Source of the DNA: Escherichia coli
GTDB lineage: Bacteria; Pseudomonadota; Gammaproteobacteria; Enterobacterales; Enterobacteriaceae
DNA: 39,846 nucleotides
Strand: one strand, 5' to 3'
Assembly (NCBI RefSeq): GCF_003334335.1
Contig: NZ_QOWQ01000039.1
This document shows positions 4,672-39,770 of the stretch, piece by piece. Position 1 is the first letter of the stretch, and the number at the start of each line of letters is the position of its first letter. The translations under genes were made by a program, and so were the position numbers. Under the pieces are notes generated by a model. It searched no databases and was not told the origin of the DNA. It saw nothing but the letters and a program-made list of their open reading frames with translations.

Positions 4672-4673
4672 TT

Positions 4674-6128: not shown

Positions 6129-6229
6129 GCCTTTCCCCTGTGTGTCTTTTTTGTTGAGGGGCACCTTTTAACATTTAGTGCCCATCGTCGCAAGACACAA
6201 TCCACACGGTTAAACGGGGTATCCTGCTT

Positions 6230-9200
6230 TTATTTCCGTACCCGATGTCGGTGCAGCCACATCAGCTTATACGCCGCCGGGATAATAAACAGCGACAGCA
6301 AAGGTGCGGTGATCATGCCGCCAATCATCGGTGCGGCAATCCGGCTCATCACCTCTGAACCAGCCCCCGTTCCCCACAGAATCGGCAGCAGACCGGCGAT
6401 AATCACCGCCACCGTCATCGCTTTCGGGCGCACGCGCAGTACCGCGCCGTGATACAACGCCTCATCCAGCTTCTGCTCACTGAATGTTTGCGGATTATTC
6501 AACGACGGCTCGGCCTCTATGGCGTGACGTAAATACATCAGCATCACCACGCCAAATTCGGCGGCGACCCCGGCGAGGGCGATAAAGCCAGTGCCCGTCG
6601 CCACGGAAAGATGAAAGCCCATCCACCACAGCAACCAGATGCCGCCCACCAGCGCAAACGGTACGCTGCTGATAATCAGCAACGCTTCGCCCACCCGACG
6701 GAACGCCAGATACAACAGCACGAAGATGATCATCAGCGTCATCGGCACCATGAGTTTCAGCTTATGGTTGGCGCGCTCCAGCAACTCGAACTGCCCGGAA
6801 AACGCCACGCTGGTGCCTGGTTTTAACTGCACTTTTTCAGCTATCGCTTTTTGCAAATCGTGAACCACCGACACCATGTCACGATCGCGGGCATCGATAT
6901 AAATCCAGCTCGTCGGGCGCGCATTCTCGGTTTTCAGCATCGACGGTCCGGTAGAGACTTTAACGTCGGCCACGTCTGCCAGGGTGATTTGCTGCTTCAT
7001 CGGCGTCAGGATCGGCAACTGGCGCAGTGCCTGCGGACTATCGCGCCAGCTTTGCGGATAACGCAGATTAATTGGATAACGGGCAATCCCTTCCACCGTT
7101 TCGCCAACCATCGCCCCGCCCACCGCAGAAGTCACAAACAACTGCACATCCGCCACCGTCATACCGTAACGTGCGGCTTTTTCACGGTTAATCTCAACGT
7201 TGATATAGCGCCCACCTTCCAGCCGCTCGGCAAGCGCAGAAGCTACGCCTGGCACCGTTCGTGCCACTTCTTCAATTTGCTCCGCCATCGCGTCGATATC
7301 CGCCAGCACAGTGCCGGAAACTTTAATGCCGATGGGGCTTTTAATGCCGGTTGAGAGCATATCGATACGGTTACGAATTGGCGGCACCCACAGATTCGCC
7401 AGCCCCGGCAGACGCACGGTGTTATCCAGTTCCTCAATGATTTTGTCCATCGTCATGCCTGGCCGCCACTGCTCCTGCGGCTTAAGCTGGATGGTCGTTT
7501 CTACCATCTCCAGCGGAGCAGAATCGGTGGCGGTTTCCGCTTTCCCGGTTTTGCCAAATACCCGCGCCACTTCAGGTACGCTCATAATTAGCTTGTCGGT
7601 TTTTTGCAGCATACTCGCCGCCTCTGCTGCGGAAATCCCCGGCAGCGTCGATGGCATATACAACAAGTCGCCTTCATTGATCTGCGGTAAAAATTCCCCG
7701 CCAACTTTATTGAGCGGCCAGAGAACCGTCAGCACCGAAAGCGCTGCCACCAACAGCGTGGTTTTCGGCCAGTGCAGTACTTTCAGCAATAGAGGATGAT
7801 AAACACGAATCAAAAAGCGATTGAGCGGGTTACTGCTTTCCGGCGGAATTTTGCCACGGATCCAGTAGCCCATCAGGATCGGGATCACTACGATCGCCAG
7901 CAGCGCCGCGCCCGCCATCGCATAGGTTTTAGTGAACGCCAGCGGGCCAAACAGACGCCCTTCCTGCCCTTCCAGGGTGAAGATCGGGATAAACGACAAC
8001 GTGATAATCAGCAGACTGATAAACAACGCCGGACCCACTTCAACAGACGCATCGGTGATCACCTGCCAGCGCGTTTTATTATCCAGCGTGGCGTCAGGAT
8101 GCTGGTGCTGCCACTCTTCCAGCCGTTTATGCGCATTCTCGATCATGACGATAGCAGCATCGACCATCGCCCCGACGGCAATCGCAATGCCACCCAACGA
8201 CATAATATTGGCATTCAGTCCCTGGAAGTGCATGACAATAAAAGCAATACACAACCCCAGCGGCAACGAAATAATCGCCACCAGCGCCGAGCGCACATGC
8301 CAGAGAAACAGCGCACAGACTACCGCCACCACAATAAACTCTTCCAGCAACTTGCCGCTGAGGTTGTCGATGGCGCGGTCAATGAGCTGGCTGCGATCGT
8401 ATGTTGTAACTATCTCCACGCCTTCCGGCAGACTACTTTTCAGCGTTTCCAGTTTGTCCTTCACGGCGGCGATCACTTCACGGGCGTTTTTGCCGGAGCG
8501 CAGGATCACCACCCCGCCTGCCACTTCGCCTTCGCCGTTCAGTTCGGCAATGCCCCGGCGCATTTCCGGTCCAATCTGGACCTTCGCAACATCACGCAGA
8601 TAAACAGGCACGCCATTTTCACTGGCTTTTAAAACGATGTGATTAAAGTCGTCGAGCGTTTGCAGATAGCCGCTGGCGCGCACCATATATTCCGCTTCCG
8701 CCAGTTCGATCGACGAACCGCCCGCTTTCTGGTTTGAAGCATCCAGCGCGCTTTTTACTTCGGCTAGACTGATGCCATACTGTGCCAGGCGCTGAGGATC
8801 GATAACCACCTGATACTCTTTCACCACACCGCCCACCGACGCCACTTCCGCAACGTCAGGGATGGTTTTTAGCTCATATTTGAGAAACCAGTCCTGCAAT
8901 GAGCGTAAATCGGCCAGATCGTGCTTACCGCTGCGATCCACCAGTGCATATTCATAGATCCAGCCAACACCCGTGGCATCTGGCCCCAGCTCGGCGCTGA
9001 CTCCCGCAGGCAGCTTACCCTGTACCTGGTTGAGGTATTCCAGCACCCGCGAACGCGCCCAGTACGGATCGGTACCATCTTCGAAAATGACATACACATA
9101 AGAGTCGCCAAACTGCGAGAAACCACGCACAGTCTTCGCGCCAGGCACCGACAACATGGTGGTGGTTAGCGGATAAGTCACCTGATTTTCAACGATTTGC

Positions 9201-9373
9201 GGTGCCTGGCCGGGATAGCTGGTTTTAATAATCACCTGCACATCGGAGAGATCCGGCAGCGCATCCACTGGCGTGTTAATGATGGTCCAGGTGCCCCAGA
9301 TACTCAGAAATAACGCGCCCATCAGCACCAGAAAACGGTTCGCCACCGAGCGACGAATAATCCATTCAATCAT
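6230..9373 (-). CDS. cusA: Cu(I)/Ag(I) efflux RND inner-membrane transporter CusA (1047 aa)
   Basis: 1047-aa ORF starting [29 protein letters not shown]; heavy-metal-efflux RND family; last gene of cusCFBA. Confidence 0.95.
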
Positions 9374-9384
9374 TGGTTATTCCC

Positions 9385-10608
9385 TCAATGCGCATGGGTA
9401 GCACTTTCAGAGCGCATCCGCTCCAGTGCGCCAGAAATATTGGCTTCGGAATCAATCAGGAACAGGCCGCTGGAAACCACCTTTTCACCTTCCGCCAGAC
9501 CAGAGCGTAATGCGGTGACACCTTGCGATGCCTGGAAAACGGCAACGCGTTTCGGTACAAAGCGCCCGTCGGCATCAACGGTAATCACCCGCTGTTCGTT
9601 GCCGGTATCAATCAGCGCCTGTGACGGAATGAGCAGCATCGGTTCGCTGGCGGTATTGAGTTGCAACCAGGCGTTCATGCCTGGTTTTAGCGCCTCGTCG
9701 GCGTTGTCGACTTCCAGACGCAGTTGTAGCGTGCGGGTCGCGGCATCCACGCCGGGTAGCAGGGTCCATTTGCGGATGGTGAGTGTTTTATCAGGTCGCG
9801 CCGGAACGGTGAGCGTAAACTGCGAGGCATCTTTCACCAGCCAGGCGATGGACTCCGGGATCGCAGCAGTGACCCACACCGGGTCCATACCCTGAATTTT
9901 CGCGACCACGTTATCTTTGGCGATATTCATTCCCGCGCGCAGATCAAACGCGGTGATCACGCCATCAATGGGCGCTTTGAGCGTAAAGCGAGTCTGGATT
10001 TTTTGCGTGGCGATCAGGCGGCGAATATCCGCCTCCGGCATTCCCGCCAGTCGCAGCCGCTCAAGAATGCCTTCAGTCTGGGTCGCCGTACCGCCGGTTT
10101 CGCGCAGCAGTAAATACTCACTCTGCGCTTCCACCCAGTCGGGAATGGTCAGGTCGAGAAGCGGTGTGCCCTTTTGCACTTTATCGCCCACGGTAAGCGG
10201 ATACACCTTGTCGATAAACCCGGCAGCGCGAGCCTGCACAATGGCATACTGATACTCGTTGTAACTGACATTCGCCGGGAAACTCTGGGCAAAAGTCAGC
10301 GGCCCGCGCGTGACGGTAGCCGTTTTCACCCCCAGATTCTGCGTCTGAGTCGGGTCAATGCGCACACCAGACGCAGAACTCTCTTCATCGGCATATTTCG
10401 GCACCAGATCCATATCCATAAACGGCGATTTACCTGGTTTATCGAACCGCGTATTGGGATACATCGGGTCGTACCAGAATAAGACTTTACGTTCTGCGGT
10501 CGACGTTTTTTCTGCGGGCGGTTCAGCCTTTGCAAACCAGTTAAAACCTGCCGCAGAAATAATACCGCCCGCGATCATGCTGCCGATAATAAGCGCGATT
10601 TTTTTCAT
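9385..10608 (-). CDS. cusB: Cu(I)/Ag(I) efflux periplasmic adaptor CusB (407 aa)
   Basis: 407-aa ORF with N-terminal signal/anchor; membrane-fusion-protein family; 11-nt gap before cusA. Confidence 0.93.
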   Translation of the reverse strand: MKKIALIIGSMIAGGIISAAGFNWFAKAEPPAEKTSTAERKVLFWYDPMYPNTRFDKPGKSPFMDMDLVPKYADEESSASGVRIDPTQTQNLGVKTATVTRGPLTFAQSFPANVSYNEYQYAIVQARAAGFIDKVYPLTVGDKVQKGTPLLDLTIPDWVEAQSEYLLLRETGGTATQTEGILERLRLAGMPEADIRRLIATQKIQTRFTLKAPIDGVITAFDLRAGMNIAKDNVVAKIQGMDPVWVTAAIPESIAWLVKDASQFTLTVPARPDKTLTIRKWTLLPGVDAATRTLQLRLEVDNADEALKPGMNAWLQLNTASEPMLLIPSQALIDTGNEQRVITVDADGRFVPKRVAVFQASQGVTALRSGLAEGEKVVSSGLFLIDSEANISGALERMRSESATHAH

Positions 10609-10623
10609 ATCATTAAACCTGGG

Positions 10624-10956
10624 TTACTGGCTGACTTTAATATCCTGTAATAAAGAAAGGTTGCCCTGCTGGACAAAATTAAACGCCACTTTGTCGCCGG
10701 TTTTAATTTCACTCATTTTCGTCTGCGGGGTGATGGTAAAGCGCATGGTCATCTCCGGCCAGTTCACGGCAGCAATCGGATCGTGATGGATGGTGATTTT
10801 TTTGCTTTCCAGATCAACACCTTTTACCACGCCAGTGGCGCTAATAACCTGCGGTTGTACTTCGCTCATGGTTTCATGATGATGTTCGTTAGCCTGGGCA
10901 TTAAAGCCAATAACGGTAAACAGACTGAACATTGCGACTTGCAGTGCTTTTTTCAT
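10624..10956 (-). CDS. cusF: Periplasmic Cu(I)/Ag(I) metallochaperone CusF (110 aa)
   Basis: 110-aa ORF with signal peptide and His/Met-rich region (ANEHHHETMSE...MTMRF); between cusC and cusB. Confidence 0.93.
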   Translation of the reverse strand: MKKALQVAMFSLFTVIGFNAQANEHHHETMSEVQPQVISATGVVKGVDLESKKITIHHDPIAAVNWPEMTMRFTITPQTKMSEIKTGDKVAFNFVQQGNLSLLQDIKVSQ

Positions 10957-10982
10957 TTATTCTCTCCTGGAGTTAAAAATTA

Positions 10983-12362
10983 CTACTGCCAACCGCCACC
11001 AAGTGCGGTATATAAAGAAATTTCGTTGACCTGACGGGCATAATTCAGGTCAAGTAAGGTTTGTCGGGTTGCAAATAAAGAACGCTCGGCATCCAGCACT
11101 TCCAGATAACTTACCGCGCCGTGCTGATATAATGCCCGCGCCCGTTGCAAAGTAATTTGCAGCGACGCCAGATAACGCTGCTGGGCGCTGATTTGATCGT
11201 TCAGGCTTTGACGTAATGCCAGCGCATCTGCCACTTCTTTAAAGGCGTTCTGGATTTTCTGTTCATAATTCACTACCGACTGCTGCTGGCGAATTTCGGC
11301 GATATCCAGATTGGCCTGGTTGCGTCCGGCATTAAAAATGGGGATCTCAATTTTGGGTATAAAATTCCACATCCCGCTGCTGGCGTTAAATAATGACGAC
11401 AGATCGCTGCTGGCGGTCGATATTCCGCTGGTCAGGCTGATAGACGGGAAAAATGCCGCACGCGCAGCACCAATATTGGCATTAGCCGCCATTAACGCGT
11501 GTTCAGCTTCCATAATATCCGGGCGCTGCAATAAGATTTGCGACGACAAGCCCGCCGGTAATTTAACGCTTTGCAGACTGTCGCTGTTTACTGTCTGCGC
11601 TTGCGGCAGCTTGCCGTAGCTTCCCAATAACAGTTGCAATGCATTATTCGCCTGCGCCAGTTCCCCCTGACGTTTAGCGATGTCACTGCGGGTACTTTCT
11701 ATCACCCCGCGAGCCTGTTCCAGCGCCAGAACATTGCTGCTACCGGTCAACAGTTGTTTTTCGACAAACGCATATGACTGCTGATAATTACGCAGCGTTT
11801 CTTCGGCTATTTGCAATTGCGCATACGCCAGTTGCTGATTGAAATAGCTTTGCGCGACATTAGAAACCAGCAGAATATGCACCGCGCGCTGAGCTTCCTC
11901 AGTGGCTAAATAATTTTGTCGCTCGGCTTCGCTCATGTTCTTTAAGCGACCGAAAAAATCGAGGTCAAGGCTGGCGTTAAGGCCGGTCGAAAACTCCCGT
12001 GTCGTGGCGGTATTCCCTTTAAGATTACCGCTCCAGCTGCCGCTGCCCTCGCCATTGAGCTGTGGGTAGCGGTCGGCATCAGTCAGACGATATTGCGCCC
12101 GTGCCTCCTGCACTTTCAGCGTCGCCATGCGCAAATCCCGGTTATTCACCAGCGCCTCGCTAATCAGCGTCTTCACCTGATTATCAACAAAAAAGGTGCG
12201 CCAGCCCGCGTTCTGATAGTTATCTGCTGCGTTAACGAGGCCGTTCTGGCTGAGTGAGAACTGCTGCGGTACGGGCATTGCCGGGCGCTGATAATCCGGT
12301 GCCAGTGAACAACCGGTTAGCGCAAGGGCCACACAAAATGGCAGAAGTTTACAAGGAGACAT
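10983..12362 (-). CDS. cusC: Outer-membrane efflux channel CusC, TolC-like lipoprotein (about 457-459 aa)
   Basis: ORF begins MSPCKLLPFCVALALTGCSLAPD with a lipobox (LTGC); outer-membrane-factor family; first gene of cusCFBA. Confidence 0.93.
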   Translation of the reverse strand: MSPCKLLPFCVALALTGCSLAPDYQRPAMPVPQQFSLSQNGLVNAADNYQNAGWRTFFVDNQVKTLISEALVNNRDLRMATLKVQEARAQYRLTDADRYPQLNGEGSGSWSGNLKGNTATTREFSTGLNASLDLDFFGRLKNMSEAERQNYLATEEAQRAVHILLVSNVAQSYFNQQLAYAQLQIAEETLRNYQQSYAFVEKQLLTGSSNVLALEQARGVIESTRSDIAKRQGELAQANNALQLLLGSYGKLPQAQTVNSDSLQSVKLPAGLSSQILLQRPDIMEAEHALMAANANIGAARAAFFPSISLTSGISTASSDLSSLFNASSGMWNFIPKIEIPIFNAGRNQANLDIAEIRQQQSVVNYEQKIQNAFKEVADALALRQSLNDQISAQQRYLASLQITLQRARALYQHGAVSYLEVLDAERSLFATRQTLLDLNYARQVNEISLYTALGGGWQ

Positions 12363-12431
12363 AGGCTCATAATTTCTGGTGATTTTATGCCGCCAACTTT
12401 ACTCGCCAGCCTCTGATTTTCCGGTGACAGG

Positions 12432-12453
12432 AAAATGACAAAATTGTCATTTT
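12432..12453. promoter_or_regulatory. CusR box: palindromic response-regulator operator in the divergent cusC/cusR promoter region
   Basis: Near-perfect 22-bp palindrome aaaatgacaaaattgtcatttt in the 156-bp intergenic region; matches the known CusR operator motif. Confidence 0.75.
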
Positions 12454-12518
12454 GCCAATAAGCGATTGCCATCTGATCCCGCTACTCTAGAATTGCCCGG
12501 GCAACATGTGGAGGAAAT

Positions 12519-13202
12519 ATGAAACTGCTGATTGTCGAAGATGAAAAGAAAACCGGAGAATACTTGACCAAAGGGTTAACCGAAGCCGGTTTTGTGGTCG
12601 ATTTGGCCGACAACGGGCTGAATGGCTACCATCTGGCGATGACCGGAGATTATGACCTGATAATCCTCGATATTATGCTGCCGGACGTGAACGGCTGGGA
12701 TATCGTGCGCATGTTGCGCTCCGCCAATAAAGGGATGCCGATTCTGTTGCTTACCGCGCTTGGCACCATTGAACATCGCGTCAAGGGGCTGGAGTTGGGG
12801 GCCGATGACTATCTGGTGAAGCCGTTCGCTTTTGCTGAACTGCTGGCGCGGGTGCGCACTCTCCTGCGGCGCGGGGCGGCGGTGATTATCGAAAGTCAGT
12901 TTCAGGTTGCCGATCTGATGGTCGATCTCGTCAGCCGCAAAGTCACCCGCAGCGGCACGCGCATCACTCTGACCAGTAAAGAATTTACTCTGCTGGAGTT
13001 TTTCCTTCGCCATCAGGGCGAAGTGCTGCCCCGCTCGCTTATCGCCTCGCAGGTATGGGACATGAATTTCGACAGCGACACTAACGCCATTGATGTGGCG
13101 GTGAAGCGGCTACGCGGCAAAATCGACAACGACTTTGAGCCGAAGCTGATTCAAACCGTGCGCGGCGTGGGTTACATGCTTGAGGTGCCGGATGGTCAGT
13201 AA
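12519..13202 (+). CDS. cusR: Copper-responsive two-component response regulator CusR, OmpR family (227 aa)
   Basis: 227-aa [23 protein letters not shown]... with receiver domain and winged-helix C-terminus. Confidence 0.95.
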
Positions 13203-14634
13203 GCCATTTCAGCGCCCGTTTTCGCTGGCAACCCGCCTGACCTTTTTTATCAGCCTGGCCACCATCGCGGCGTTTTTCGCCTTTGCATGGATCATGATCC
13301 ACTCAGTAAAAGTGCATTTTGCCGAGCAGGATATTAATGATTTAAAAGAGATTAGCGCCACCCTTGAACGGGTACTAAATCACCCTGACGAAACGCAAGC
13401 CCGACGCTTAATGACGCTGGAAGATATCGTCAGTGGTTATTCCAATGTGTTGATTTCCCTGGCAGATAGTCAGGGTAAAACGGTGTATCACTCCCCCGGT
13501 GCGCCCGATATCCGCGAGTTTACGCGTGACGCCATACCCGATAAAGACGCGCGGGGCGGCGAGGTGTATCTCCTTTCCGGCCCGACGATTATGATGCCAG
13601 GGCACGGTCACGGGCATATGGAACACAGCAACTGGCGGATGATTAACTTACCGGTTGGCCCGCTGGTTGACGGCAAACCGATTTATACGCTCTACATCGC
13701 GCTTTCGATCGATTTTCATCTTCATTACATAAATGATTTGATGAATAAACTTATTATGACCGCATCGGTAATCAGCATCCTGATCGTCTTTATCGTGCTG
13801 TTGGCGGTACATAAAGGTCACGCGCCGATCCGCAGCGTCAGCCGTCAAATCCAGAATATTACCTCGAAAGATCTCGACGTTCGCCTTGACCCGCAGACCG
13901 TGCCCATTGAGCTGGAACAGCTGGTACTGTCGTTCAACCATATGATCGAGCGTATTGAGGATGTCTTTACCCGCCAGTCCAATTTCTCAGCGGATATCGC
14001 TCACGAAATTCGCACACCAATTACGAATCTCATAACGCAAACCGAAATCGCCCTCAGCCAGTCGCGCAGCCAGAAGGAGCTGGAAGATGTGCTCTACTCT
14101 AATCTCGAAGAGCTGACGCGAATGGCGAAAATGGTCAGCGATATGCTGTTTCTCGCTCAGGCCGATAACAACCAGCTAATCCCCGAAAAGAAAATGCTCA
14201 ACCTGGCGGATGAAGTCGGCAAAGTGTTCGATTTTTTCGAGGCGTTAGCGGAAGATCGCGGCGTGGAGTTGCGGTTTGTTGGCGACAAGTGTCAGGTCGC
14301 GGGCGATCCGCTGATGCTGCGTCGGGCGCTAAGCAACCTGCTTTCGAACGCCCTGCGTTATACGCCAACCGGAGAGACAATTGTAGTGCGCTGTCAGACG
14401 GTCGATCACCTGGTGCAAGTTATCGTCGAAAACCCCGGTACGCCCATTGCGCCCGAGCACTTACCGCGATTGTTTGACCGTTTCTATCGCGTTGACCCCT
14501 CCCGCCAGCGAAAAGGTGAAGGTAGCGGTATTGGCCTGGCGATAGTGAAATCGATTGTTGTCGCGCATAAAGGCACGGTTGCGGTAACGTCGGATGCGCG
14601 GGGGACAAGGTTTGTTATCACATTACCCGCTTAA
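13192..14634 (+). CDS. cusS: Copper/silver sensor histidine kinase CusS (480 aa)
   Basis: ORF trimmed to ATG at 13192 ([19 protein letters not shown]...); two transmembrane segments, H-box ([10 protein letters not shown]) and ATPase motifs; overlaps cusR by 11 nt. Confidence 0.93.
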
Positions 14635-14783
14635 TCCTTCAGCAAACGGCAACTTTTATAACCAGTGTAAAAATAACGTGCCGCAATAGTCATACCTATT
14701 AATGGTAAAAAGCTGTCACAATTCATAAAAAACCTTAATATACGCCACCCTAAACATAACCAGCGTTAATGTAAGGTTTTTGT

Positions 14784-17021
14784 GTGGACTGGCTTCTTGA
14801 TGTTTTTGCTACCTGGCTCTACGGCTTAAAAGTAATCGCGATAACGTTAGCGGTCATCATGTTCATCAGCGGGCTGGACGATTTTTTTATTGATGTCGTC
14901 TACTGGGTACGCCGCATTAAACGCAAGTTGAGTGTTTATCGCCGCTACCCGCGAATGAGTTACCGCGAACTGTATAAACCAGATGAAAAACCGTTAGCGA
15001 TTATGGTTCCGGCGTGGAATGAAACGGGCGTCATCGGCAATATGGCCGAGCTGGCGGCGACCACGCTCGACTACGAAAACTATCATATCTTTGTTGGCAC
15101 CTACCCCAACGCCCCCGATACTCAGCGTGATGTTGACGAAGTGTGCGCTCGCTTCCCGAATGTGCATAAGGTAGTCTGCGCGCGTCCTGGCCCCACCAGC
15201 AAAGCCGACTGTCTGAACAACGTGCTGGACGCCATCACCCAATTTGAGCGTAGCGCCAATTTCGCTTTTGCTGGTTTTATTCTGCATGACGCCGAAGATG
15301 TGATTTCACCGATGGAATTGCGTCTGTTCAACTATCTGGTCGAGCGTAAAGATCTGATTCAGATCCCGGTGTATCCGTTCGAACGCGAATGGACGCACTT
15401 CACCAGCATGACTTACATTGATGAGTTTTCAGAGCTGCATGGCAAAGATGTTCCGGTGCGTGAAGCCCTCGCCGGACAAGTGCCCAGCGCAGGCGTCGGC
15501 ACCTGTTTCAGCCGCCGCGCCGTGACCGCACTGTTAGCTGACGGTGACGGTATTGCTTTCGACGTGCAGAGTCTTACTGAAGATTACGACATTGGCTTCC
15601 GCCTGAAAGAAAAAGGTATGACGGAAATTTTTGTCCGTTTTCCGGTGGTGGACGAAGCCAAAGAACGCGAGCAGCGTAAATTTTTACAGCACGCGCGGAC
15701 ATCAAACATGATCTGCGTGCGCGAATATTTCCCCGATACCTTTTCGACTGCGGTTCGACAAAAATCCCGCTGGATCATCGGCATTGTTTTCCAAGGCTTT
15801 AAAACCCATAAATGGACCTCCAGCCTGACGCTGAACTACTTTCTCTGGCGCGACCGCAAAGGGGCAATCAGTAACTTTGTCAGCTTCCTCGCGATGCTGG
15901 TGATGATCCAGCTTTTGCTGTTGCTGGCGTATGAAAGTTTGTGGCCCGATGCCTGGCATTTCCTTTCTATTTTCAGCGGCAGCGCATGGTTAATGACCCT
16001 GCTGTGGCTAAACTTTGGTTTGATGGTTAACCGCATCGTGCAGCGGGTGATTTTCGTTACTGGCTACTACGGCCTGACGCAGGAGCTGCTTTCCGTCCTG
16101 CGTCTTTTCTGGGGCAACCTGATTAACTTCATGGCCAACTGGCGCGCGCTAAAACAGGTACTTCAACACGGCGATCCACGTCGCGTGGCGTGGGATAAAA
16201 CAACGCATGACTTCCCCAGCGTGACTGGCGATACCCGCTCGTTGCGCCCGTTAGGTCAAATTCTGCTGGAAAATCAGGTCATCACTGAAGAACAACTCGA
16301 TACAGCACTGCGTAATCGCGTCGAAGGTCTACGCCTGGGCGGTTCAATGCTGATGCAGGGGCTGATTAGCGCCGAGCAGCTGGCACAGGCGCTGGCAGAG
16401 CAAAACGGCGTGGCGTGGGAATCCATCGATGCCTGGCAGATCCCTTCCTCGCTGATTGCCGAAATGCCGGCCTCCGTGGCGCTGCATTATGCGGTACTGC
16501 CGCTGCGTCTGGAAAATGACGAGTTAATTGTCGGCAGTGAAGATGGTATTGACCCGGTTTCGCTGGCGGCCCTGACGCGTAAAGTCGGACGCAAAGTGCG
16601 TTACGTCATTGTTCTGCGGGGACAAATTGTCACAGGGTTACGTCACTGGTATGCACGCCGACGCGGTCACGATCCGCGGGCAATGTTGTACAATGCGGTT
16701 CAGCATCAGTGGCTCACGGAACAGCAGGCCGGTGAAATCTGGCGGCAATATGTGCCGCATCAGTTCCTGTTCGCCGAAATACTGACCACGCTCGGTCATA
16801 TTAATCGTTCAGCAATTAACGTGTTGTTATTGCGCCATGAACGCAGTTCTCTGCCGCTCGGCAAGTTTTTGGTCACCGAAGGCGTTATCAGCCAGGAAAC
16901 GTTGGATCGCGTCCTGACAATTCAACGCGAATTACAAGTTTCGATGCAATCACTATTACTCAAAGCAGGTTTAAACACAGAACAGGTTGCGCAACTGGAG
17001 TCCGAAAATGAAGGAGAATAA
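14784..17021 (+). CDS. nfrB: NfrB: inner-membrane family-2 glycosyltransferase needed for bacteriophage N4 adsorption (745 aa)
   Basis: 745-aa ORF starting at GTG 14784 (MDWLLDVFATWLYGLKV...), recognised as NfrB. Confidence 0.9.
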   Translation: MDWLLDVFATWLYGLKVIAITLAVIMFISGLDDFFIDVVYWVRRIKRKLSVYRRYPRMSYRELYKPDEKPLAIMVPAWNETGVIGNMAELAATTLDYENYHIFVGTYPNAPDTQRDVDEVCARFPNVHKVVCARPGPTSKADCLNNVLDAITQFERSANFAFAGFILHDAEDVISPMELRLFNYLVERKDLIQIPVYPFEREWTHFTSMTYIDEFSELHGKDVPVREALAGQVPSAGVGTCFSRRAVTALLADGDGIAFDVQSLTEDYDIGFRLKEKGMTEIFVRFPVVDEAKEREQRKFLQHARTSNMICVREYFPDTFSTAVRQKSRWIIGIVFQGFKTHKWTSSLTLNYFLWRDRKGAISNFVSFLAMLVMIQLLLLLAYESLWPDAWHFLSIFSGSAWLMTLLWLNFGLMVNRIVQRVIFVTGYYGLTQELLSVLRLFWGNLINFMANWRALKQVLQHGDPRRVAWDKTTHDFPSVTGDTRSLRPLGQILLENQVITEEQLDTALRNRVEGLRLGGSMLMQGLISAEQLAQALAEQNGVAWESIDAWQIPSSLIAEMPASVALHYAVLPLRLENDELIVGSEDGIDPVSLAALTRKVGRKVRYVIVLRGQIVTGLRHWYARRRGHDPRAMLYNAVQHQWLTEQQAGEIWRQYVPHQFLFAEILTTLGHINRSAINVLLLRHERSSLPLGKFLVTEGVISQETLDRVLTIQRELQVSMQSLLLKAGLNTEQVAQLESENEGE

Positions 17022-19980
17022 CCTTAATCGCGTCATCGGATGGTCTGGTTTACTGCTGACGTCTTTATTGAGTACCAGCGCACTCGCAGACAATATCGGC
17101 ACCAGCGCAGAAGAGCTGGGGCTGAGCGATTATCGCCATTTTGTTATTTATCCCCGTCTCGATAAAGCGCTGAAGGCACAGAAAAATAACGACGAAGCAA
17201 CCGCCATCCGCGAATTTGAATATATACACCAGCAGGTGCCGGATAATATTCCGCTGACTTTATACCTTGCGGAAGCCTATCGCCATTTTGGTCATGATGA
17301 CCGGGCGCGGCTGTTGCTTGAGGATCAACTGAAACGTCACCCAGGAGATGCCCGACTTGAGCGCAGTCTGGCGGCTATTCCGGTTGAAGTGAAAAGCGTT
17401 ACGACAGTTGAAGAACTGCTTGCCCAGCAAAAAGCGTGCGATGCTGCGCCGACCCTGCGTTGTCGCAGTGAAGTCGGGCAGAATGCCCTGCGGCTGGCAC
17501 AGTTACCTGTCGCCAGAGCGCAACTGAACGATGCGACGTTTGCTGCATCGCCGGAAGGAAAAACGCTGCGAACCGATCTGCTGCAACGGGCAATCTACCT
17601 GAAACAATGGTCCCAGGCAGATACGCTATACAATGAAGCACGCCAGCAGAACACATTAAGCGCGGCAGAACGCCGTCAGTGGTTTGACGTGCTTCTTGCC
17701 GGGCAGCTGGACGATCGGATCCTGGCACTGCAATCACAGGGGATCTTCACCGATCCTCAGTCATATATTACTTACGCGACCGCGCTGGCTTATCGTGGCG
17801 AAAAAGCACGCCTCCAGCATTATCTCATTGAAAATAAGCCACTATTTACCACGGACGCACAAGAGAAAAGTTGGCTCTATCTGTTATCTAAATACAGCGC
17901 TAACCCCGTTCAGGCGTTGGCGAATTATACGGTACAGTTTGCCGACAACCGCCAGTATGTTGTTGGCGCGACGCTACCGGTGCTGTTAAAAGAAGGTCAG
18001 TACGACGCAGCGCAAAAACTGCTCGCCACCCTCCCCGCCAATGAAATGCTTGAGGAGCGTTATGCTGTCAGCGTGGCGACCCGTAACAAGGCTGAAGCTC
18101 TGCGTCTGGCACGATTGCTGTATCAGCAAGAACCGGCAAATCTTACCCGCCTGGATCAACTAACCTGGCAACTGATGCAGAACGAGCAGTCACGCGAAGC
18201 TGCCGATTTATTGCTGCAACGCTATCCTTTCCAGGGCGATGCGCGTGTCAGCCAGACTTTAATGGCGCGACTGGCGTCTCTGCTGGAAAGTCATCCTTAC
18301 CTGGCAACGCCGGCGAAGGTGGCGATTTTATCGAAACCCTTACCGCTGGCGGAGCAACGTCAGTGGCAAAGTCAGTTGCCGGGTATTGCAGATAATTGCC
18401 CGGCAATAGTTCGCTTGCTGGGCGATATGTCGCCTTCCTACGATGCCGCCGCCTGGAACCGTCTGGCAAAGTGTTATCGGGACACGCTACCCGGTGTGGC
18501 GTTGTATGCATGGCTTCAGGCCGAACAACGACAACCGAGCGCCTGGCAACATCGTGCGGTAGCCTATCAGGCGTATCAGGTTGAGGACTACGCCACCGCA
18601 CTGGCGGCCTGGCAGAAAATCAGTCTTCACGACATGAGCAATGAGGATCTGCTTGCTGCTGCCAATACCGCCCAGGCGGCAGGAAATGGTGCGGCTCGCG
18701 ATCGCTGGCTACAACAGGCAGAAAAACGTGGACTGGGAAGCAATGCCCTCTACTGGTGGCTGCATGCGCAACGTTACATTCCTGGTCAGCCGGAACTCGC
18801 ACTGAACGATCTCACGCGCTCAATCAATATTGCGCCTTCTGCCAACGCTTACGTTGCGCGGGCGACAATTTATCGCCAACGTCATAATGTCCCGGCCGCG
18901 GTGAGTGATTTGCGCGCCGCGCTGGAACTGGAACCGAATAATAGCAACACCCAGGCAGCGCTTGGTTACGCCTTGTGGGATAGCGGTGATATCGCACAGT
19001 CGCGGGAAATGCTCGAACCGGCGCATAAAGGGCTTCCGGACGATCCGGCACTGATCCGACAACTGGCCTACGTGAACCAGCGTCTGGATGACATGCCTGC
19101 GACGCAGCACTACGCCCGGCTGGTGATTGATGACATTGATGATCAGGCGCTGATAACCCCACTGACCCCAGAACAAAATCAACAACGCTTCAATTTCCGC
19201 CGTTTGCATGAGGAGGTCGGTCGCCGCTGGACGTTCAGTTTCGATTCTTCCATCGGCTTGCGTTCCGGCGCAATGAGTACCGCTAACAATAATGTCGGCG
19301 GCGCAGCGCCAGGGAAAAGCTATCGTAGCTACGGACAACTGGAAGCCGAGTACCGCATCGGACGCAATATGCTGCTGGAAGGCGACCTGCTCTCAGTTTA
19401 TAGCCGCGTCTTTGCCGATACCGGAGAAAACGGGGTGATGATGCCGGTGAAAAATCCGATGTCCGGCACCGGTCTGCGCTGGAAGCCGCTGCGCGATCAG
19501 ATCTTTTTCATCGCCGTCGAACAGCAGTTGCCGCTGAACGGCCAAAATGGCGCATCCGATACCATGCTGCGCGCCAGCGCCTCATTCTTTAATGGCGGCA
19601 AATACAGCGACGAATGGCACCCGAACGGTTCAGGCTGGTTTGCCCAAAACCTGTACCTCGATGCGGCGCAATATATCCGCCAGGATATTCAGGCGTGGAC
19701 GGCAGATTATCGCGTCAGCTGGCATCAGAAGGTAGCTAACGGACAGACTATTGAGCCTTACGCTCACGTTCAGGACAACGGCTATCGTGATAAAGGCACT
19801 CAGGGCGCGCAGCTTGGCGGAGTCGGGGTCCGCTGGAATATCTGGACCGGCGAGACGCACTACGACGCCTGGCCGCACAAAGTCAGTCTCGGCGTCGAGT
19901 ATCAACATACCTTTAAGGCGATTAATCAACGTAACGGAGAGCGCAACAACGCGTTTCTCACCATTGGAGTGCACTGGTAA
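17008..19980 (+). CDS. nfrA: NfrA: outer-membrane protein, bacteriophage N4 receptor (990 aa)
   Basis: ORF trimmed to ATG at 17008 (MKENNLNRVIGWSGLLLTSLLSTSALA, signal peptide); TPR-like repeats then C-terminal beta-rich domain; overlaps nfrB by 14 nt. Confidence 0.9.
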   Translation: MKENNLNRVIGWSGLLLTSLLSTSALADNIGTSAEELGLSDYRHFVIYPRLDKALKAQKNNDEATAIREFEYIHQQVPDNIPLTLYLAEAYRHFGHDDRARLLLEDQLKRHPGDARLERSLAAIPVEVKSVTTVEELLAQQKACDAAPTLRCRSEVGQNALRLAQLPVARAQLNDATFAASPEGKTLRTDLLQRAIYLKQWSQADTLYNEARQQNTLSAAERRQWFDVLLAGQLDDRILALQSQGIFTDPQSYITYATALAYRGEKARLQHYLIENKPLFTTDAQEKSWLYLLSKYSANPVQALANYTVQFADNRQYVVGATLPVLLKEGQYDAAQKLLATLPANEMLEERYAVSVATRNKAEALRLARLLYQQEPANLTRLDQLTWQLMQNEQSREAADLLLQRYPFQGDARVSQTLMARLASLLESHPYLATPAKVAILSKPLPLAEQRQWQSQLPGIADNCPAIVRLLGDMSPSYDAAAWNRLAKCYRDTLPGVALYAWLQAEQRQPSAWQHRAVAYQAYQVEDYATALAAWQKISLHDMSNEDLLAAANTAQAAGNGAARDRWLQQAEKRGLGSNALYWWLHAQRYIPGQPELALNDLTRSINIAPSANAYVARATIYRQRHNVPAAVSDLRAALELEPNNSNTQAALGYALWDSGDIAQSREMLEPAHKGLPDDPALIRQLAYVNQRLDDMPATQHYARLVIDDIDDQALITPLTPEQNQQRFNFRRLHEEVGRRWTFSFDSSIGLRSGAMSTANNNVGGAAPGKSYRSYGQLEAEYRIGRNMLLEGDLLSVYSRVFADTGENGVMMPVKNPMSGTGLRWKPLRDQIFFIAVEQQLPLNGQNGASDTMLRASASFFNGGKYSDEWHPNGSGWFAQNLYLDAAQYIRQDIQAWTADYRVSWHQKVANGQTIEPYAHVQDNGYRDKGTQGAQLGGVGVRWNIWTGETHYDAWPHKVSLGVEYQHTFKAINQRNGERNNAFLTIGVHW

Positions 19981-20871
19981 ATGCGTAAGTTCATTTTCGT
20001 ATTGCTGACACTGCTTTTGGTCAGCCCTTTTTCCTTTGCGATGAAAGGTATTATCTGGCAACCACAAAACCGAGATAGTCAGGTTACCGATACCCAGTGG
20101 CAGGGGCTGATGAGTCAGTTACGTTTGCAAGGCTTCGATACCCTTGTTTTGCAATGGACCCGTTACGGCGATGCATTTACCCAGCCAGAACAGCGCACGT
20201 TATTGTTTAAGCGGGCCGCAGCTGCGCAACAGGCTGGTCTGAAGCTTATTGTCGGGCTGAACGCCGATCCGGAATTTTTTATGCACCAGAAACAGTCGTC
20301 CGCAGCGCTGGAAAGCTATCTTAATCGCCTGCTGGCTGCCGATCTCCAGCAAGCCAGATTATGGAGCGCCGCGCCTGGCATAACGCCGGATGGCTGGTAC
20401 ATCAGCGCGGAAATTGACGACCTGAACTGGCGCAGCGAAGCCGCCCGTCAGCCTTTGCTAACATGGTTAAACAACGCGCAGCGGCTGATTAGCGATGTTT
20501 CAGCAAAACCGGTTTATATCAGTAGTTTTTTCGCCGGAAACATGTCGCCCGATGGCTATCGCCAACTGCTGGAACACGTTAAAGCAACCGGCGTTAATGT
20601 CTGGGTACAGGATGGCAGCGGCGTGGATAAACTGACCGCTGAACAGCGTGAACGTTATTTACAGGCCAGCGCCGATTGCCAAAGTCCCGCCCCTGCCAGC
20701 GGCGTTGTTTATGAACTTTTTGTCGCCGGCAAAGGCAAAACCTTTACAGCGAAACCGAAACCGGACGCAGAAATTGCCTCGCTGTTAGCGAAACGTTCCT
20801 CTTGCGGTAAAGACACTCTCTATTTCTCTCTGCGCTATTTGCCCGTCGCGCACGGCATTCTCGAGTATTAA
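19981..20871 (+). CDS. ybcH: YbcH, secreted protein of the nfrBA-ybcH operon (296 aa)
   Basis: 296-aa ORF with signal peptide (MRKFIFVLLTLLLVSPFSFA); ATG immediately follows the nfrA stop codon. Confidence 0.88.
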   Translation: MRKFIFVLLTLLLVSPFSFAMKGIIWQPQNRDSQVTDTQWQGLMSQLRLQGFDTLVLQWTRYGDAFTQPEQRTLLFKRAAAAQQAGLKLIVGLNADPEFFMHQKQSSAALESYLNRLLAADLQQARLWSAAPGITPDGWYISAEIDDLNWRSEAARQPLLTWLNNAQRLISDVSAKPVYISSFFAGNMSPDGYRQLLEHVKATGVNVWVQDGSGVDKLTAEQRERYLQASADCQSPAPASGVVYELFVAGKGKTFTAKPKPDAEIASLLAKRSSCGKDTLYFSLRYLPVAHGILEY

Positions 20872-21053
20872 ATCTCCTCCAGGTAAGTCGGGTACGACCT
20901 GGCTTACCTCTTTCGCTCTCATCAGAATTCCATCAAGATTAATTGCTAAAAAGCGTGCTAAAGAAAGAAGATCGTTATCGGCGAACGGGCCGATCACTCA
21001 TGCAGGAAGCATAGATCCTTTGAGCGGAGTTTCTGATATCTGAGGAGTGCGAA

Positions 21054-21815
21054 ATGCAATTGAGCAGCAGTGAACCTTGCGTGGTGATCCTGACCGAAAA
21101 AGAGGTAGAGGTAAGCGTCAATAACCATGCTACGTTTACCCTTCCGAAAAACTACCTGGCCGCCTTCGCGTGCAACAATAACGTCATTGAACTCTCAACG
21201 TTAAATCACGTATTAATCACCCACATCAACCGTAACATCATCAACGATTATCTGTTGTTTTTAAATAAGAACTTAACCTGTGTAAAGCCCTGGTCGCGGC
21301 TGGCAACCCCGGTTATCGCTTGTCATAGCCGTACACCGGAAGTGTTCCGGCTAGCCGCCAACCACAGCAAGCAGCAACCCAGCAGACCCTGCGAAGCGGA
21401 GTTGACGCGCGCATTGCTTTTTACCGTATTGTCTAACTTTCTTGAGCAATCGCGGTTTATTGCCCTACTGATGTATATCTTACGCAGCAGCGTCCGCGAC
21501 AGCGTCTGCCGCATTATTCAAAGCGATATTCAGCATTACTGGAATCTGCGAATTGTCGCCAGTTCGCTATGTTTAAGCCCCAGCCTGCTCAAAAAGAAAT
21601 TAAAAAACGAAAATACCAGCTATAGCCAGATTGTCACAGAGTGTCGTATGCGTTACGCCGTACAGATGTTATTGATGGATAACAAAAATATCACTCAGGT
21701 GGCGCAATTATGTGGCTATAGCAGCACGTCGTACTTTATCTCTGTTTTTAAGGCGTTTTACGGCCTGACACCGTTGAATTATCTCGCCAAACAGCGACAA
21801 AAAGTGATGTGGTGA
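21054..21815 (+). CDS. envY: AraC-family transcriptional regulator EnvY (253 aa)
   Basis: 253-aa ORF with C-terminal AraC-type helix-turn-helix (...QVAQLCGYSSTSYFISVFKAFYGLTPLNY); position next to ybcH. Confidence 0.85.
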   Translation: MQLSSSEPCVVILTEKEVEVSVNNHATFTLPKNYLAAFACNNNVIELSTLNHVLITHINRNIINDYLLFLNKNLTCVKPWSRLATPVIACHSRTPEVFRLAANHSKQQPSRPCEAELTRALLFTVLSNFLEQSRFIALLMYILRSSVRDSVCRIIQSDIQHYWNLRIVASSLCLSPSLLKKKLKNENTSYSQIVTECRMRYAVQMLLMDNKNITQVAQLCGYSSTSYFISVFKAFYGLTPLNYLAKQRQKVMW

Positions 21816-21860
21816 AGGGCAAAGCGGAAACGGATAAGACGGGCATAAATGAGGAAGAAA

Positions 21861-21937
21861 TGGCGCGCCCTGCAGGATTCGAACCTGCGGCCCACGACTT
21901 AGAAGGTCGTTGCTCTATCCAACTGAGCTAAGGGCGC
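21861..21937 (-). tRNA. argU: tRNA-Arg (anticodon UCU), argU
   Basis: Reverse complement reads GCGCCCTTAGCTCAGTTGGATAGAGCAACGACCTTCTAAGTCGTGGGCCGCAGGTTCGAATCCTGCAGGGCGCGCCA: full cloverleaf, anticodon loop CUUCUAAG, encoded CCA end. Confidence 0.95.
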
Positions 21938-22179
21938 GTTGATACCGCAATGCGGTGTAATCGCGTGAATTATACGGTCAACCCTTGCTGAGTCAATGGC
22001 TTTTGATCTGGTTGCTGAACAAGTGAACGACCGCGTCTGATTTTCTGATTTATTTCGCTATAGCGGCAAACAAACGCACACCGCTGCGCGTCTGAATCAA
22101 GAAAACCCGTATTTTCATGTATCAAAGTACAATTTCCCGACCTAACGGAAAATTGTCCGCTCCTATGAGACTGGTAACT

Positions 22180-22812
22180 ATGAAACCAACGTCGGTGATC
22201 ATTATGGATACTCATCCTATCATCAGAATGTCTATTGAAGTTCTGTTGCAAAAAAACAGTGAATTGCAGATTGTCCTGAAAACGGATGATTATCGCATAA
22301 CCATCGATTATCTCCGAACCCGTCCTGTTGATTTAATCATTATGGATATAGACTTGCCCGGAACAGACGGTTTTACCTTCCTGAAAAGGATCAAACAAAT
22401 CCAGAGCACAGTGAAAGTGTTATTTTTATCATCGAAATCAGAATGCTTTTATGCTGGCAGAGCGATACAAGCTGGTGCTAACGGTTTTGTCAGTAAATGC
22501 AATGATCAGAATGATATTTTTCATGCCGTTCAGATGATCCTCTCCGGATACACGTTTTTTCCCAGCGAAACGCTTAACTATATAAAAAGCAATAAATGTA
22601 GTACGAATAGTTCAACGGTCACTGTGCTATCTAATCGTGAAGTGACCATATTACGTTATCTGGTTAGCGGATTATCTAATAAAGAAATTGCCGATAAGTT
22701 ATTACTTAGCAATAAAACAGTTAGTGCGCATAAATCTAATATTTATGGCAAGCTAGGTTTGCATTCAATTGTAGAGCTTATCGACTACGCCAAATTATAC
22801 GAATTAATATAA
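22180..22812 (+). CDS. fimZ: Fimbrial regulator FimZ, LuxR/NarL-family response regulator (210 aa)
   Basis: ORF trimmed to ATG at 22180 (MKPTSVIIMDTHPIIRMSIEVLL...); receiver domain plus C-terminal LuxR-type helix-turn-helix. Confidence 0.9.
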   Translation: MKPTSVIIMDTHPIIRMSIEVLLQKNSELQIVLKTDDYRITIDYLRTRPVDLIIMDIDLPGTDGFTFLKRIKQIQSTVKVLFLSSKSECFYAGRAIQAGANGFVSKCNDQNDIFHAVQMILSGYTFFPSETLNYIKSNKCSTNSSTVTVLSNREVTILRYLVSGLSNKEIADKLLLSNKTVSAHKSNIYGKLGLHSIVELIDYAKLYELI

Positions 22813-22814
22813 TA

Positions 22815-23330
22815 TTAATTATAATTGATCATAAATATCGCATCCGCTTTCGCCACACCTGGCCGAACACCGCTGGCTAACGCTCGATAATTGGCAAAAA
22901 AGTTTAGTGTGACATTGCCATTTGCATCTACTTCCTCAGTCGGGCTCGCCTCCCCCAGTGCGAGCCGGGAGCGATCGCTATTACGTAATTCGATGGCGAC
23001 GGTTTGTGCCATTGCGGGATCATCCAGAGCCAGCAGGTTGGTATCGGATGCCGGCGTTCCCGTAAATAAAATCGCAACTGAACCCGGAGGACATCCCTCC
23101 AGCCGCAGGCTAAAAGGGACGAGTGCCGTGGTATCGCCAGCGTTCAGTAGTTGTGTCGTAGGCCATCTGCCTAAATCTACCGTCTTATCAATATCCGCTG
23201 TGTTTACGGTACAGGAGAAATCAACAACGTTACCGTGCAAATTGATATTAATCGTTCCTAAAGGGTCAACTGCCCATCCACTGGAACTCCACAGTAGCCC
23301 GCAGAAACAGCTAAAGAGTACTCTTCTCAT
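22815..23330 (-). CDS. sfmF: Fimbrial minor subunit SfmF (171 aa)
   Basis: ORF 22815..23525 trimmed to the ATG giving MRRVLFSCFCGLLWSSSGWA signal peptide; fimbrial subunit fold with C-terminal ...ADAIFMINYN. Confidence 0.85.
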   Translation of the reverse strand: MRRVLFSCFCGLLWSSSGWAVDPLGTININLHGNVVDFSCTVNTADIDKTVDLGRWPTTQLLNAGDTTALVPFSLRLEGCPPGSVAILFTGTPASDTNLLALDDPAMAQTVAIELRNSDRSRLALGEASPTEEVDANGNVTLNFFANYRALASGVRPGVAKADAIFMINYN

Positions 23331-23340
23331 TCTCCGTACC

Positions 23341-35343: not shown

Positions 35344-36237
35344 CTACAGCGAAATACAGGTCCCCGCTTCGCCCGCCAGCGTCTCTTCAATTCGCGATAA
35401 CGCCCCAATCCACGCGGGTTTACCACGGCTTCTGACATAACCACTCACCGCCGTTACCTTCGGCCCCATCGAACCATCGGCTTTGGCAAATGGCGCTAAC
35501 TCATCCGGTGTGGCATGGCGAATGGCGCGTTGCTGCGGCGTTCCCCAGTTTTCATATACCGCATCAGCATCAGTGAGGATCACCAGCCCATCGGCGTTAA
35601 TCTGCTCAGCGAGCAACGCAGCAGCGAGATCTTTATCAATCACCGCTTCACTCCCTGCCCCATCTTCCGTCACAGGCACACCGCCGCCGCCACTGCAAAT
35701 CACCACATGCCCCTCTTTGAGCAACAACTCGATGGCTTCGCTGTCGAGAATTTTACGCGGTTGCGGAGACGCCACCACCCGGCGCAAATATTTACCATCA
35801 CGTTTCATCTGCCAGCCGTAAGCCGCTTCCAGTGCCTCTTGTTCTTCTGGCTGATAAACCGGACCAATAAATTTCTCTGGCTGCAAAAACGCCGGATCAT
35901 CAGGCGAAACCTCAATGCGCGTCAGCACCGTCGTCACGGGCGGCATCTGCGGCTGTGCGCTCAAACTCTGTGCCAGCATATAGCCAATCATCCCCTGGCT
36001 TTCCGCCACCAGCACATCCAGCGGATACGGTTCTACCTCTTTCCACGCCAGATTCTGCAATGCCAGCAGCCCCACCTGCGGCCCGTTGCCGTGAACAATC
36101 GCCAGCCGATAAGAACGGGCCAGGCGCGCCAGCGCGGGTACAGCACTGGCGATATTGCGATATTGATTTTCTGCCGTCAGCGCCTCGCCGCGCTGGAGTA
36201 AGGCGTTGCCCCCAAGAGCTACAACCAGTGTTTTCAT
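35344..36237 (-). CDS. ybcF: Carbamate kinase-like protein YbcF (ArcC family, 297 aa)
   Basis: 297-aa [33 protein letters not shown]..., amino-acid-kinase fold typical of carbamate kinases. Confidence 0.9.
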
Positions 36238-37049
36238 GGTGTTCCTTGTAATAATTGTTGACCAAGCCAGAACCCCAGCAGCGTATCTGCCCCTGACGTG
36301 TGCCCCAGCGCCAGCAGCGAATCAATCGCAACAGCGGTACGTTTCGGGCAACTCAGAGCATGAACAAAGTGCAGGAGTGGCGAGGCGAAATATCCTTGCG
36401 CGGCGTAGCGTAAATAACTGACGCTCACCGCTGTGGTAACGAGTTGAAGATTGTCGGAACAGGCAAAAAACTGGCGACCAGAGCGCGCATCTAAAGCGCC
36501 ATAATACCAGGCCGCCAGCAGCATTCCGCTCAGCGTATCATCATGACTTGGCGTTAATCCGGGTCCTTTACCCAGCCAGTGCCGCCAGTCGGTCTTAACG
36601 CCATTGAGCGCGGCCTGAAAACAGTGACGAAACTGGCGTAATTCAGCGGGCAGCGGATCGCTTGCCGCCATCGCCAGTGGCCCGAAAAGCCCGGTTTCCT
36701 CCGCGCGTTGCATCCATGCAGCTGCAAGCGGTTGAGGATGCGCAGGCGGCGTAATACGCAGCAAACAATAACGCTGTGGCTGTTTAACCGTGAAACGCCC
36801 GAGGCGAATCCCTTGAGCCACAACCTGCGGTCGTTCATTGCCGCATAATCCACCGCATAACGCATCGAATTGCGCGCGGCGAAGCACCCATCCTCCGGGG
36901 CCGAAACCACTACCCTTACGATGCAGCGTTAACAGTTCGCCGCTTTCCGTCATCAGGTTAATCGCCCGTCGCCACACTCCCGCTAACCGCCAGGACTGGC
37001 GATAATTCGGTGCGCTACTACTGGCAAGCAGAGGATGGATGATCGTCAT
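36234..37049 (-). CDS. ylbF: YlbF, DUF2877 protein of the fdrA-ylbE-ylbF-ybcF cluster (271 aa)
   Basis: ORF 36234..37142 trimmed to the ATG at 37049 ([20 protein letters not shown]...), giving 271 aa; its stop overlaps the ybcF start (ATGA). Confidence 0.8.
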
Positions 37050-37059
37050 TGTGCGTTCC

Positions 37060-38319
37060 TCAACCAATCCCCATGCTTTCAGCCAGTGCTTCCAGCGCCT
37101 GTTCAAAACACGCCAGCGGTGCCCGCACGGTGCCTGCGCCAATCTGCCCGATCCCCGCCTCTTTATGGGCGATACCGGTATTGATGAGTGGCGTAATACC
37201 GGTTTCTACCACGCGACGAATGTCCAGTCCCAGGCAGGCGCCCTGAAAATCCCAGCTTGGGATCTGCAACTGCATATTGCGTTCAAGGTAAATTTCCGCC
37301 ATCTCTTCAGATACCGCCCTGGCCGCTTCCATGCCACCCGCACCGACAAAGCGCGTTACGCCAGGCGCTGCGATCATTGCCGCACCTCCGATACCAAAGG
37401 TTTCGGTAATCGCGCTATCGCCCATATCCGGGTTCGCCTGCTCCTGCGAGAAGCCGGTGAAAAACAGACCTTGCGGAGTGTTTACAGGCGCAGTAAACCA
37501 GCGTTCACCCAGCCCGCTTACCCGAATCCCGAACATATTGCCGTTGCGGGTCATAGCCGTAACGATGCTGCCTGCGCGGATCATCGCGCCAGCATCCATC
37601 GCCGCCTTGCAGTAGGCCATCGCGAGGTTGAGGAAGAACTGATCGGTCACGCTGAGGAAATCCATCACTTCCGCAATGTGCTGTTTATCATGATCGAGGC
37701 GAGCAATTTGTGGGGCCAGCGTACGCATTAACAGTGCTGAGGAAGCAATATTGCGTTGATGGAACTCATCGCCCATGGTAATGCCCTGCGCCATCATCGC
37801 CGTGAGATCGATACCGTGCTCCATGCGCCCCAGCGCCGCGCTTAATACTGGCATTAACACATCGCGCATCCAGCGATGGCGAGTCAGGACATCTTCGCCA
37901 TAAGCGCCAAAACGCATCACTTTGCCGATACCTTCGTTGAGGTTGCAGTACGCCCGGTTGCCGTCGGTCACGTTCTCGACCACCAGCATCGGCATACTGG
38001 CAGAAGTAATACCGCCCATTGGCCCGACGGCATTCACATGGTGACAAGGAATGAAGTTCACTTCCCCCTGCTCCAGTATTGCCAGCGCCTGCGCTTCATC
38101 TTTCGCCCAACCTTCGAACAGACATGCGCCCACGCACGCCCCTTTCATAGGTCCGGTCATCTCCTGCCAGCGCATTGGCGGCCCGGCGTGAAGCAGTGTT
38201 TTGCCCTGGTTTAGTTCGCTGATAAGTGAAGAAGCCGGTTGCACATCCAGCCAGTGTGGACGAGCGCGACGAATTTGTTCGATAACCGCAGCATTGGCTT
38301 GCGCCACTGATGTAAACAT
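37060..38319 (-). CDS. ylbE: YlbE, DUF1116 protein (419 aa), a single uninterrupted frame here
   Basis: 419-aa [31 protein letters not shown]...; position between fdrA and ylbF. Confidence 0.85.
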
Positions 38320-38328
38320 GGGAACCCC

Positions 38329-39770
38329 TTATTGCAAACGTTCTAATAAACGAGCCAGTTTTTTATTGCCGCCGGCGACTGGCGACCATTGGTAATGCCC
38401 AACCGGTTTGCTGGCGCTTTGTAGCTCCAGCGCAAAGCTGCGTAATCCGATGTTAATCACGGCGACGTTTTCCAGTAATGACGGTGTGTGTTGCTGAGTG
38501 GCAGGCGAAAGCGGACGAATCAGTGCCGCCGCCAGCAAGGTGGCTTCCGGCAGCGAACTCACTACCGCGATCCCCGCATCTTCCAGCGTGGCGATTTGCT
38601 GCGAGCGGCATTGCGGGTCACGTTCAGTGCCTGTCACCGTGGCAATGGCATACAGTGGTTGATTGTCTGAACGCGCAGCACAGGCTTTTTGCCAGGCGCT
38701 TACCAGCGAGGCGGCAGGATCGGCGGTCGCACCGAAGCCAATCACGACATCAAGCAGCAATACGCGCACTTGCGGTTTAGCGCCGAGATCGGCAATTAAC
38801 TGATTGCGTAAGGCTGGGTCGATCATCGGATGGGGACGCCCGACGGTGTAGAAATCATCGCCGAGGTCAATAATCTGGTGACCATCGGCGTCGAGCATCA
38901 TGCCGTGATGATGGGTATCGTCGGCTTCCACGCCAAGGTGTCCAGCAAGTAATCCCGCCGCTTCGGCAGCCAGGGTACCGCCGGTATACAAACCGCAAAT
39001 AAATCCGCTGCTGGCAGGCGTTATCGCGTTACGTCGCGCCGTAACGCGTGAAAGCAGGCAAGCCAGGCGTGCGGCCTCATCCAGCGAGGAGGCAAACCAG
39101 ACATTCTCGTCGCGGGCCACCGCCGGGGTATAACCTAAAAACAGCGCCACCGTCGGTTTGCCGGTTGCTTTCATGGCATTAACAATTTTCAGACGCACAG
39201 CTTCGGCAGGCGGTTTTGAAACAAATGCCAGCACTTCGCTTTTCTCGTCTGCACTGAGCATTTCCAGCGCCGTCAGCGCACTGATGCCGCCCACTTCACG
39301 GCTGAGGTCGCGCCCGCCAAGGCCAATCGCGTGAGTAATTCCCTCCCCTGCCAGCGCAATCTGCGAACACAGTTCCTGAATCCCGGTACCGGAAGCGCCA
39401 ATGACGCCAATATTGCCTTCCGGCATCACGTTAGCAAAAGCCAGCGGCGTGCCGGCAATCATCGACGTACCGCAGTCCGGCCCCATCACCAGCAAGCCTT
39501 TTTCCCGCGCGCGGCTTTTAAGTTGGATTTCATCTTCCAGCGTGACGTTATCGGAGAACATCATCACGTTGAGGTTGCGATCCAGCGCCTGGTTCGCCAG
39601 CTCCGCCGCATACTCGCCAGCCACTGAAATCAGCGCCAGACTGGCGTCGGGTAATTTCTGACAGGCACTGTCCCAGCGACGCACCTGCGTCAACGCCTGG
39701 CTGCTGCCTGACCCCTGCGCCAGTTGTTTTAGCGCCTCTTCAAGCTGCTGCATAATCGCCTGCGCGATCC
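38329..39770 (-). pseudogene. fdrA: fdrA (CoA-binding / succinyl-CoA-synthetase-like protein), 5'-truncated by the IS186 insertion; about 480 C-terminal codons remain
   Basis: Frame reads ...GIAQAIMQQLEEALKQLAQGSG... down to the stop at 38329. Upstream of 39770 the frame enters the IS terminus and hits an in-frame TAA at 39784-39786. Full-length FdrA is about 555 aa by my recollection, so roughly 80 N-terminal codons are separated from this part. Confidence 0.7.

Follow-up and report, generated by a model that had tools for sequence, protein, structure and literature searches.

The DNA between envY and argU in the Escherichia coli stretch analyzed here raises the question of whether its phage attachment site is vacant and, if it is, whether an element once resident there has been lost or was never acquired. 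The stretch, referred to as the window, comprises 39,846 nucleotides (contig NZ_QOWQ01000039.1, NCBI RefSeq assembly GCF_003334335.1). Phages and islands with tyrosine integrases can use attachment cores that overlap a tRNA gene in its 3' part; the incoming element brings a replacement copy, which keeps the tRNA functional, and excision restores the site exactly. Among attachment sites at tRNA 3' ends in general, the argU site is a standard example with nothing unusual about it. A preliminary description of the window, made from its sequence, had proposed that the site was unoccupied.

Organization of the argU locus

ARAGORN identified a single tRNA gene in the window, on the minus strand at 21861-21937, a tRNA-Arg whose anticodon is TCT, and the Rfam tRNA model (RF00005) scored 72.1 bits on 21864-21937 against a gathering score of 29. 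This is argU, tRNA-Arg(UCU). It is intact and identical to the K-12 gene (0 mismatches across 21859-24006 by base-by-base comparison), and the features of a functional argU were present, namely a complete cloverleaf, the UCU anticodon, an encoded 3' CCA and the K-12 sequence.

On the 3' side of argU lies envY (21054-21815, plus strand), which codes for an AraC-family regulator of 253 amino acids and was recognized as an open reading frame and from the annotation of strain PEC1009 at the same coordinates. No mismatch with K-12 envY was found, nor any from 19142 to 21905. The envY stop codon (ending at 21815) is 45 bp from the argU 3' end (21861), and these positions, as first described, proved exact to the base. 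The 45-bp spacer (21816-21860) is identical to the K-12 spacer between envY and the attR core. A terminator-like hairpin was sought in this spacer and none was found.

The gene adjoining argU on its 5' side, as in K-12, is fimZ (22180-22812, plus strand), identified from its open reading frame, the annotation and the K-12 map. A consensus scan located a sigma-70 promoter-like site (TTGACT, 16-nt spacer, TATAAT; 11 of 12 positions) at 21969-21996 on the minus strand. It stops 31 bp short of the argU 5' end, on the upstream side, and is probably the argU promoter.

Comparison with K-12 and location of the attachment core

In the MG1655 map argU occupies 564723-564799, DLP12 564755-586056 and envY 586147-586908, with the DLP12 feature beginning 45 nt before the end of argU, at 564755. 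The prophage contains intD, a decayed early region, lysis genes, appY (583681-584430) and ompT (584680-585633), and it separates argU from envY in K-12 just as the preliminary description states.

When the 28-kb K-12 locus was compared with the whole window using BLAST, only two blocks were obtained. K-12 562000-564801 matched window 24661-21859 (99.86%) and K-12 586054-590000 matched window 21908-17962 (99.95%), so that the two overlap on the window at the core. The DNA between them in K-12 (564802-586053; 21.3 kb, intD to ompT) had no match anywhere in the 39.8-kb window, which bears out the claim that DLP12, ompT and appY are missing at this locus. In a three-way alignment the window was composed of the K-12 attR left flank (envY side), the core and the K-12 attL right flank (argU/fimZ side), the structure of the unoccupied attachment site that had been proposed.

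Alignment against the MG1655 junctions placed the common core at 21859-21905, a segment of 47 bp made up of the last 45 nt of argU and 2 nt downstream. Both the alignment and the base-by-base comparison found this segment identical to the attL and attR copies of K-12. The occupied form in K-12 thus consists of attL, the 21.3-kb prophage with appY and ompT, and attR, and holds two copies of the core, whereas the window holds one: a search of the window with up to three mismatches allowed, for which 0 matches were expected by chance, returned a single match. A scar, a second core copy and direct or inverted repeats were sought around the site and none was found, nor was there a sign of an attL/attR scar pointing to a different rearrangement.

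The core is single and envY stands directly beside argU, so that no element is integrated: the segment 21859-21905, overlapping the argU 3' end, constitutes an empty attB of the kind used by lambdoid phages of the IntD type. This can be regarded as practically certain. The attB described for DLP12 in K-12 (Lindsey et al. 1989, cited in PMC6379469) agrees with it in the tRNA gene, the 47-bp core and the distances to fimZ and envY. Since the core is identical to that of K-12, the site is predicted, and likely, to be competent for an IntD-type integrase, and argU would be free to receive IntD-type lambdoid phages.

The near-identical genome PEC1009 has 6 differences from the window in 39.7 kb. 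Its annotation lists no prophage genes in the matching stretch, which at this place contains only envY, the tRNA-Arg gene and fimZ. Strain M217 is 100% identical over a 901-bp junction but 98.85% identical across the window, and it has an IS26/wcaM junction that is absent from the window; it was rejected as the source.

Frequency of the empty arrangement

The 901-bp junction was used as the query in a survey of complete E. coli genomes, a genome being counted when one place covered at least 80% of the query. Uninterrupted envY-argU-fimZ was found in 2520 of 5426 genomes (46%), and each listed row among the counted genomes was a single piece. Distant lineages, among them O157:H7 strains and SMS-3-5, also have the empty arrangement, and their spacer is likewise 45 bp. 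Where an insert is present, the envY-side matches ended at window 21905/21908 and the argU-side matches began at 21859; these breakpoints mark the 47-bp core independently.

A second query, the K-12 fimZ-argU-intD region, identified 950 genomes in which the integrase side resembles that of K-12. Of 60 evenly spaced rows, about 26 broke off exactly 2 bp beyond argU and so represent the empty state; another group had an integrase fragment that was diverged (91-94%). Among the sampled rows, 100% K-12-type junctions belonged mostly to laboratory strains.

Variation at this locus has been reported before. In a study of 638 genomes (Ramisetty and Sudhakari 2019, PMC6379469), DLP12 was present at the argU locus in 74% and absent from 26%; the authors describe its integration next to argU, at the 3' end of the gene, with a repeat of 47 bp at attR. 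Published work already covers the site, its core and the variable presence of DLP12, and the window is an ordinary case. For strain typing, the use that had been suggested, occupancy divides E. coli roughly in half and adds little when used alone, the marker being weak because 46% of complete genomes share the empty state.

Presence of ompT and appY in the closest relatives

Relatives were surveyed with a query in which window 21000-25000 was joined to the K-12 appY-ompT region. At least 59 complete chromosomes shared the 4-kb junction with the window at 100% identity, and in 57 of these 59 no match to appY-ompT was found anywhere on the chromosome; PEC1009, NCTC9041 and O157:H16 98-3133 are examples. 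With these closest complete relatives taken as a proxy, it is probable that the strain is without OmpT and AppY altogether. For the annotator, this means a strain most probably devoid of the OmpT protease and the AppY regulator; the significance is small beyond such bookkeeping. The remaining two of the 59 empty-site relatives, A14 and GDSC2BY4G, each gave a second match to the appY-ompT query elsewhere on the chromosome.

Occupied argU sites in other strains

The same integration point is used by elements at argU in SE11 (PP_SE11-1), IHE3034 and S88 (PAI-argU), D2, ZJ3920 and EC6622. In such strains 4-50 kb of phage-derived DNA lies beside argU, whereas in the window argU is flanked by envY and fimZ with no element. 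The SE11 element is a 50.4-kb lambda-like prophage with a 47-nt duplication (PMC2608844), and argU islands carrying ompT have been described in IHE3034 and S88 (review of genomic islands, PMC7545054).

Strain D2 contains a DLP12-like remnant with the K-12 gene order (replication protein P fragment, ren, emrE, ylcJ, ybcK ... quuD) that is about 97% identical to K-12 DLP12. The occupied site of EC6622 contains intD, IS1 and ompT. In ZJ3920 (L004, 3440-7350), argU has folD on one side and, on the other, an integrase fragment, a tail-fibre fragment, a methyltransferase and ompT, with ybcH next; the ZJ3920 locus lacks envY as well as the entire sfm/fimZ cluster. The ompT and integrase fragment of this strain are 92-95% identical to those of K-12. 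In D2, EC6622 and ZJ3920 alike, ompT is inside the element.

History of the site

An apparent vacancy could arise during assembly, if an element were present at argU and the envY and fimZ flanks had been falsely joined through the 47-bp repeat. The window does start and end inside IS186 copies, which suggests a short-read contig with unresolved repeats, and it probably is such a contig, broken at the IS186 copies. However, a repeat of only 47 bp would ordinarily interrupt a contig, as the IS186 copies did, and not join it falsely, and the same join recurs in 2520 complete genomes, among them PEC1009 with its 6 differences in 39.7 kb. An artefact of this kind is accordingly regarded as extremely improbable.

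Loss and original vacancy leave the same site, because recombination between attL and attR regenerates attB exactly, and the two cannot be told apart from the site itself; the flanks and the K-12 prophage have to be considered. IntD-type phages bring along their own version of the tRNA 3' end, so that on integration the tRNA gene stays intact at attL and a partial copy of 47 bp is left at attR beside envY. Recombination of attL with attR, whether mediated by Int/Xis or by RecA across the 47-bp repeats, would then restore attB exactly. Window 14001-24000, which spans the site, shows 3 true differences from K-12 in 10 kb, against 1-2% in neighbouring segments, and none within 19142-24006, the flanks being identical to K-12 over 2.1 kb towards fimZ and 2.7 kb towards envY. 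Such near-identity implies a very recent ancestor common to both lineages for this segment. DLP12 itself is an old, decayed element, because its decayed architecture is common to the D2 remnant (about 97%) and because the ompT and integrase fragment of ZJ3920 stand at 92-95%; the entry of a fresh phage into K-12 after the split would therefore be unlikely. Homologous import is likewise disfavoured, since diverged flanks would be expected and none was seen. Loss requires one recombination event, and in K-12 the excision of DLP12 is reportedly inducible by Hha (PMC4632033); a recent gain by K-12 would entail rapid decay or an import without a diverged flank. On these grounds we infer, with modest confidence, that the window descends from a DLP12-bearing ancestor common to K-12 and that the element was then lost precisely in one step.

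The contrary history, in which the empty site is ancestral and K-12 gained DLP12 either through site-specific integration and subsequent decay or through homologous import of a decayed copy, is a serious but rather less probable reading. It draws on the same spacing of envY, argU and fimZ in 46% of complete genomes, distant O157:H7 and SMS-3-5 included, and on at least 59 natural isolates that combine an empty site with exactly the flank haplotype of the window; emptiness may even be the ancestral state of E. coli. Gains do happen, since IntD-type prophages of varying completeness are found at argU elsewhere, and intact ones (50 kb in SE11) still integrate there in the population. K-12 could be the changed lineage, the 100% K-12-type junctions among the sampled rows being mostly those of laboratory strains. 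What weighs against it is the exact match of the K-12 flanks over 2.1 kb (fimZ) and 2.7 kb (envY), together with the heavy decay of DLP12, whose architecture is common to remnants of other lineages that are at least 3% diverged. A recent gain would need very fast decay, or an import that left no diverged flank.

The usual view of the decayed DLP12 is that it is 'grounded', fixed in place. The chances seem evenly balanced that it may still excise precisely in natural populations, taking ompT and appY with it in one step, and that the window has a recently vacated site on a K-12-like haplotype. If so, whether close relatives possess OmpT or not would reflect ongoing att-site recombination and not ancient history. 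A recent precise loss would also make the locus a small example of a decayed prophage still acting as a mobile unit.

Other features of the window

Both ends of the window are IS186 termini, positions 1-80 being 100% identical to bases 80-1 of K-12 IS186B and positions 39768-39846 to bases 1345-1267. The left copy is adjoined, as in K-12, by the annotated hokE toxin gene (99-251, minus strand), and the sok antitoxin RNA (sokE) was found at 243-398 on the minus strand (Rfam RF01794, 84.4 bits). The right-hand IS186 (39768-39846) interrupts fdrA (38329 onwards, minus strand), an insertion absent from K-12 and PEC1009; the K-12 match ends at 546905, about 225 bp into fdrA.

Divergence from K-12 is distributed as a mosaic along the window. 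Positions 1-6000 and 14001-24000 show hardly any difference from K-12, 6001-14000 (cusA to cusR) is about 2% diverged, and 24001-39771 (sfmD to fdrA) is 1.2-2.3% diverged, a pattern that reads as a typical recombination patchwork.

The cusC-cusF spacer (10957-10985) measures 26 bp against 157 bp in K-12 (about 125 bp shorter), with the alignment break at window 10978/10986, corresponding to K-12 597109/596976; the K-12 spacer probably holds a small repeat element absent from the window. The annotated cusC is 6 bp longer. The sfmH homologue (23341-24348; fimH in the PEC1009 annotation) codes for 335 amino acids, against a K-12 gene of 984 bp, the difference in length being due to an indel near 24346, at the 5' end.
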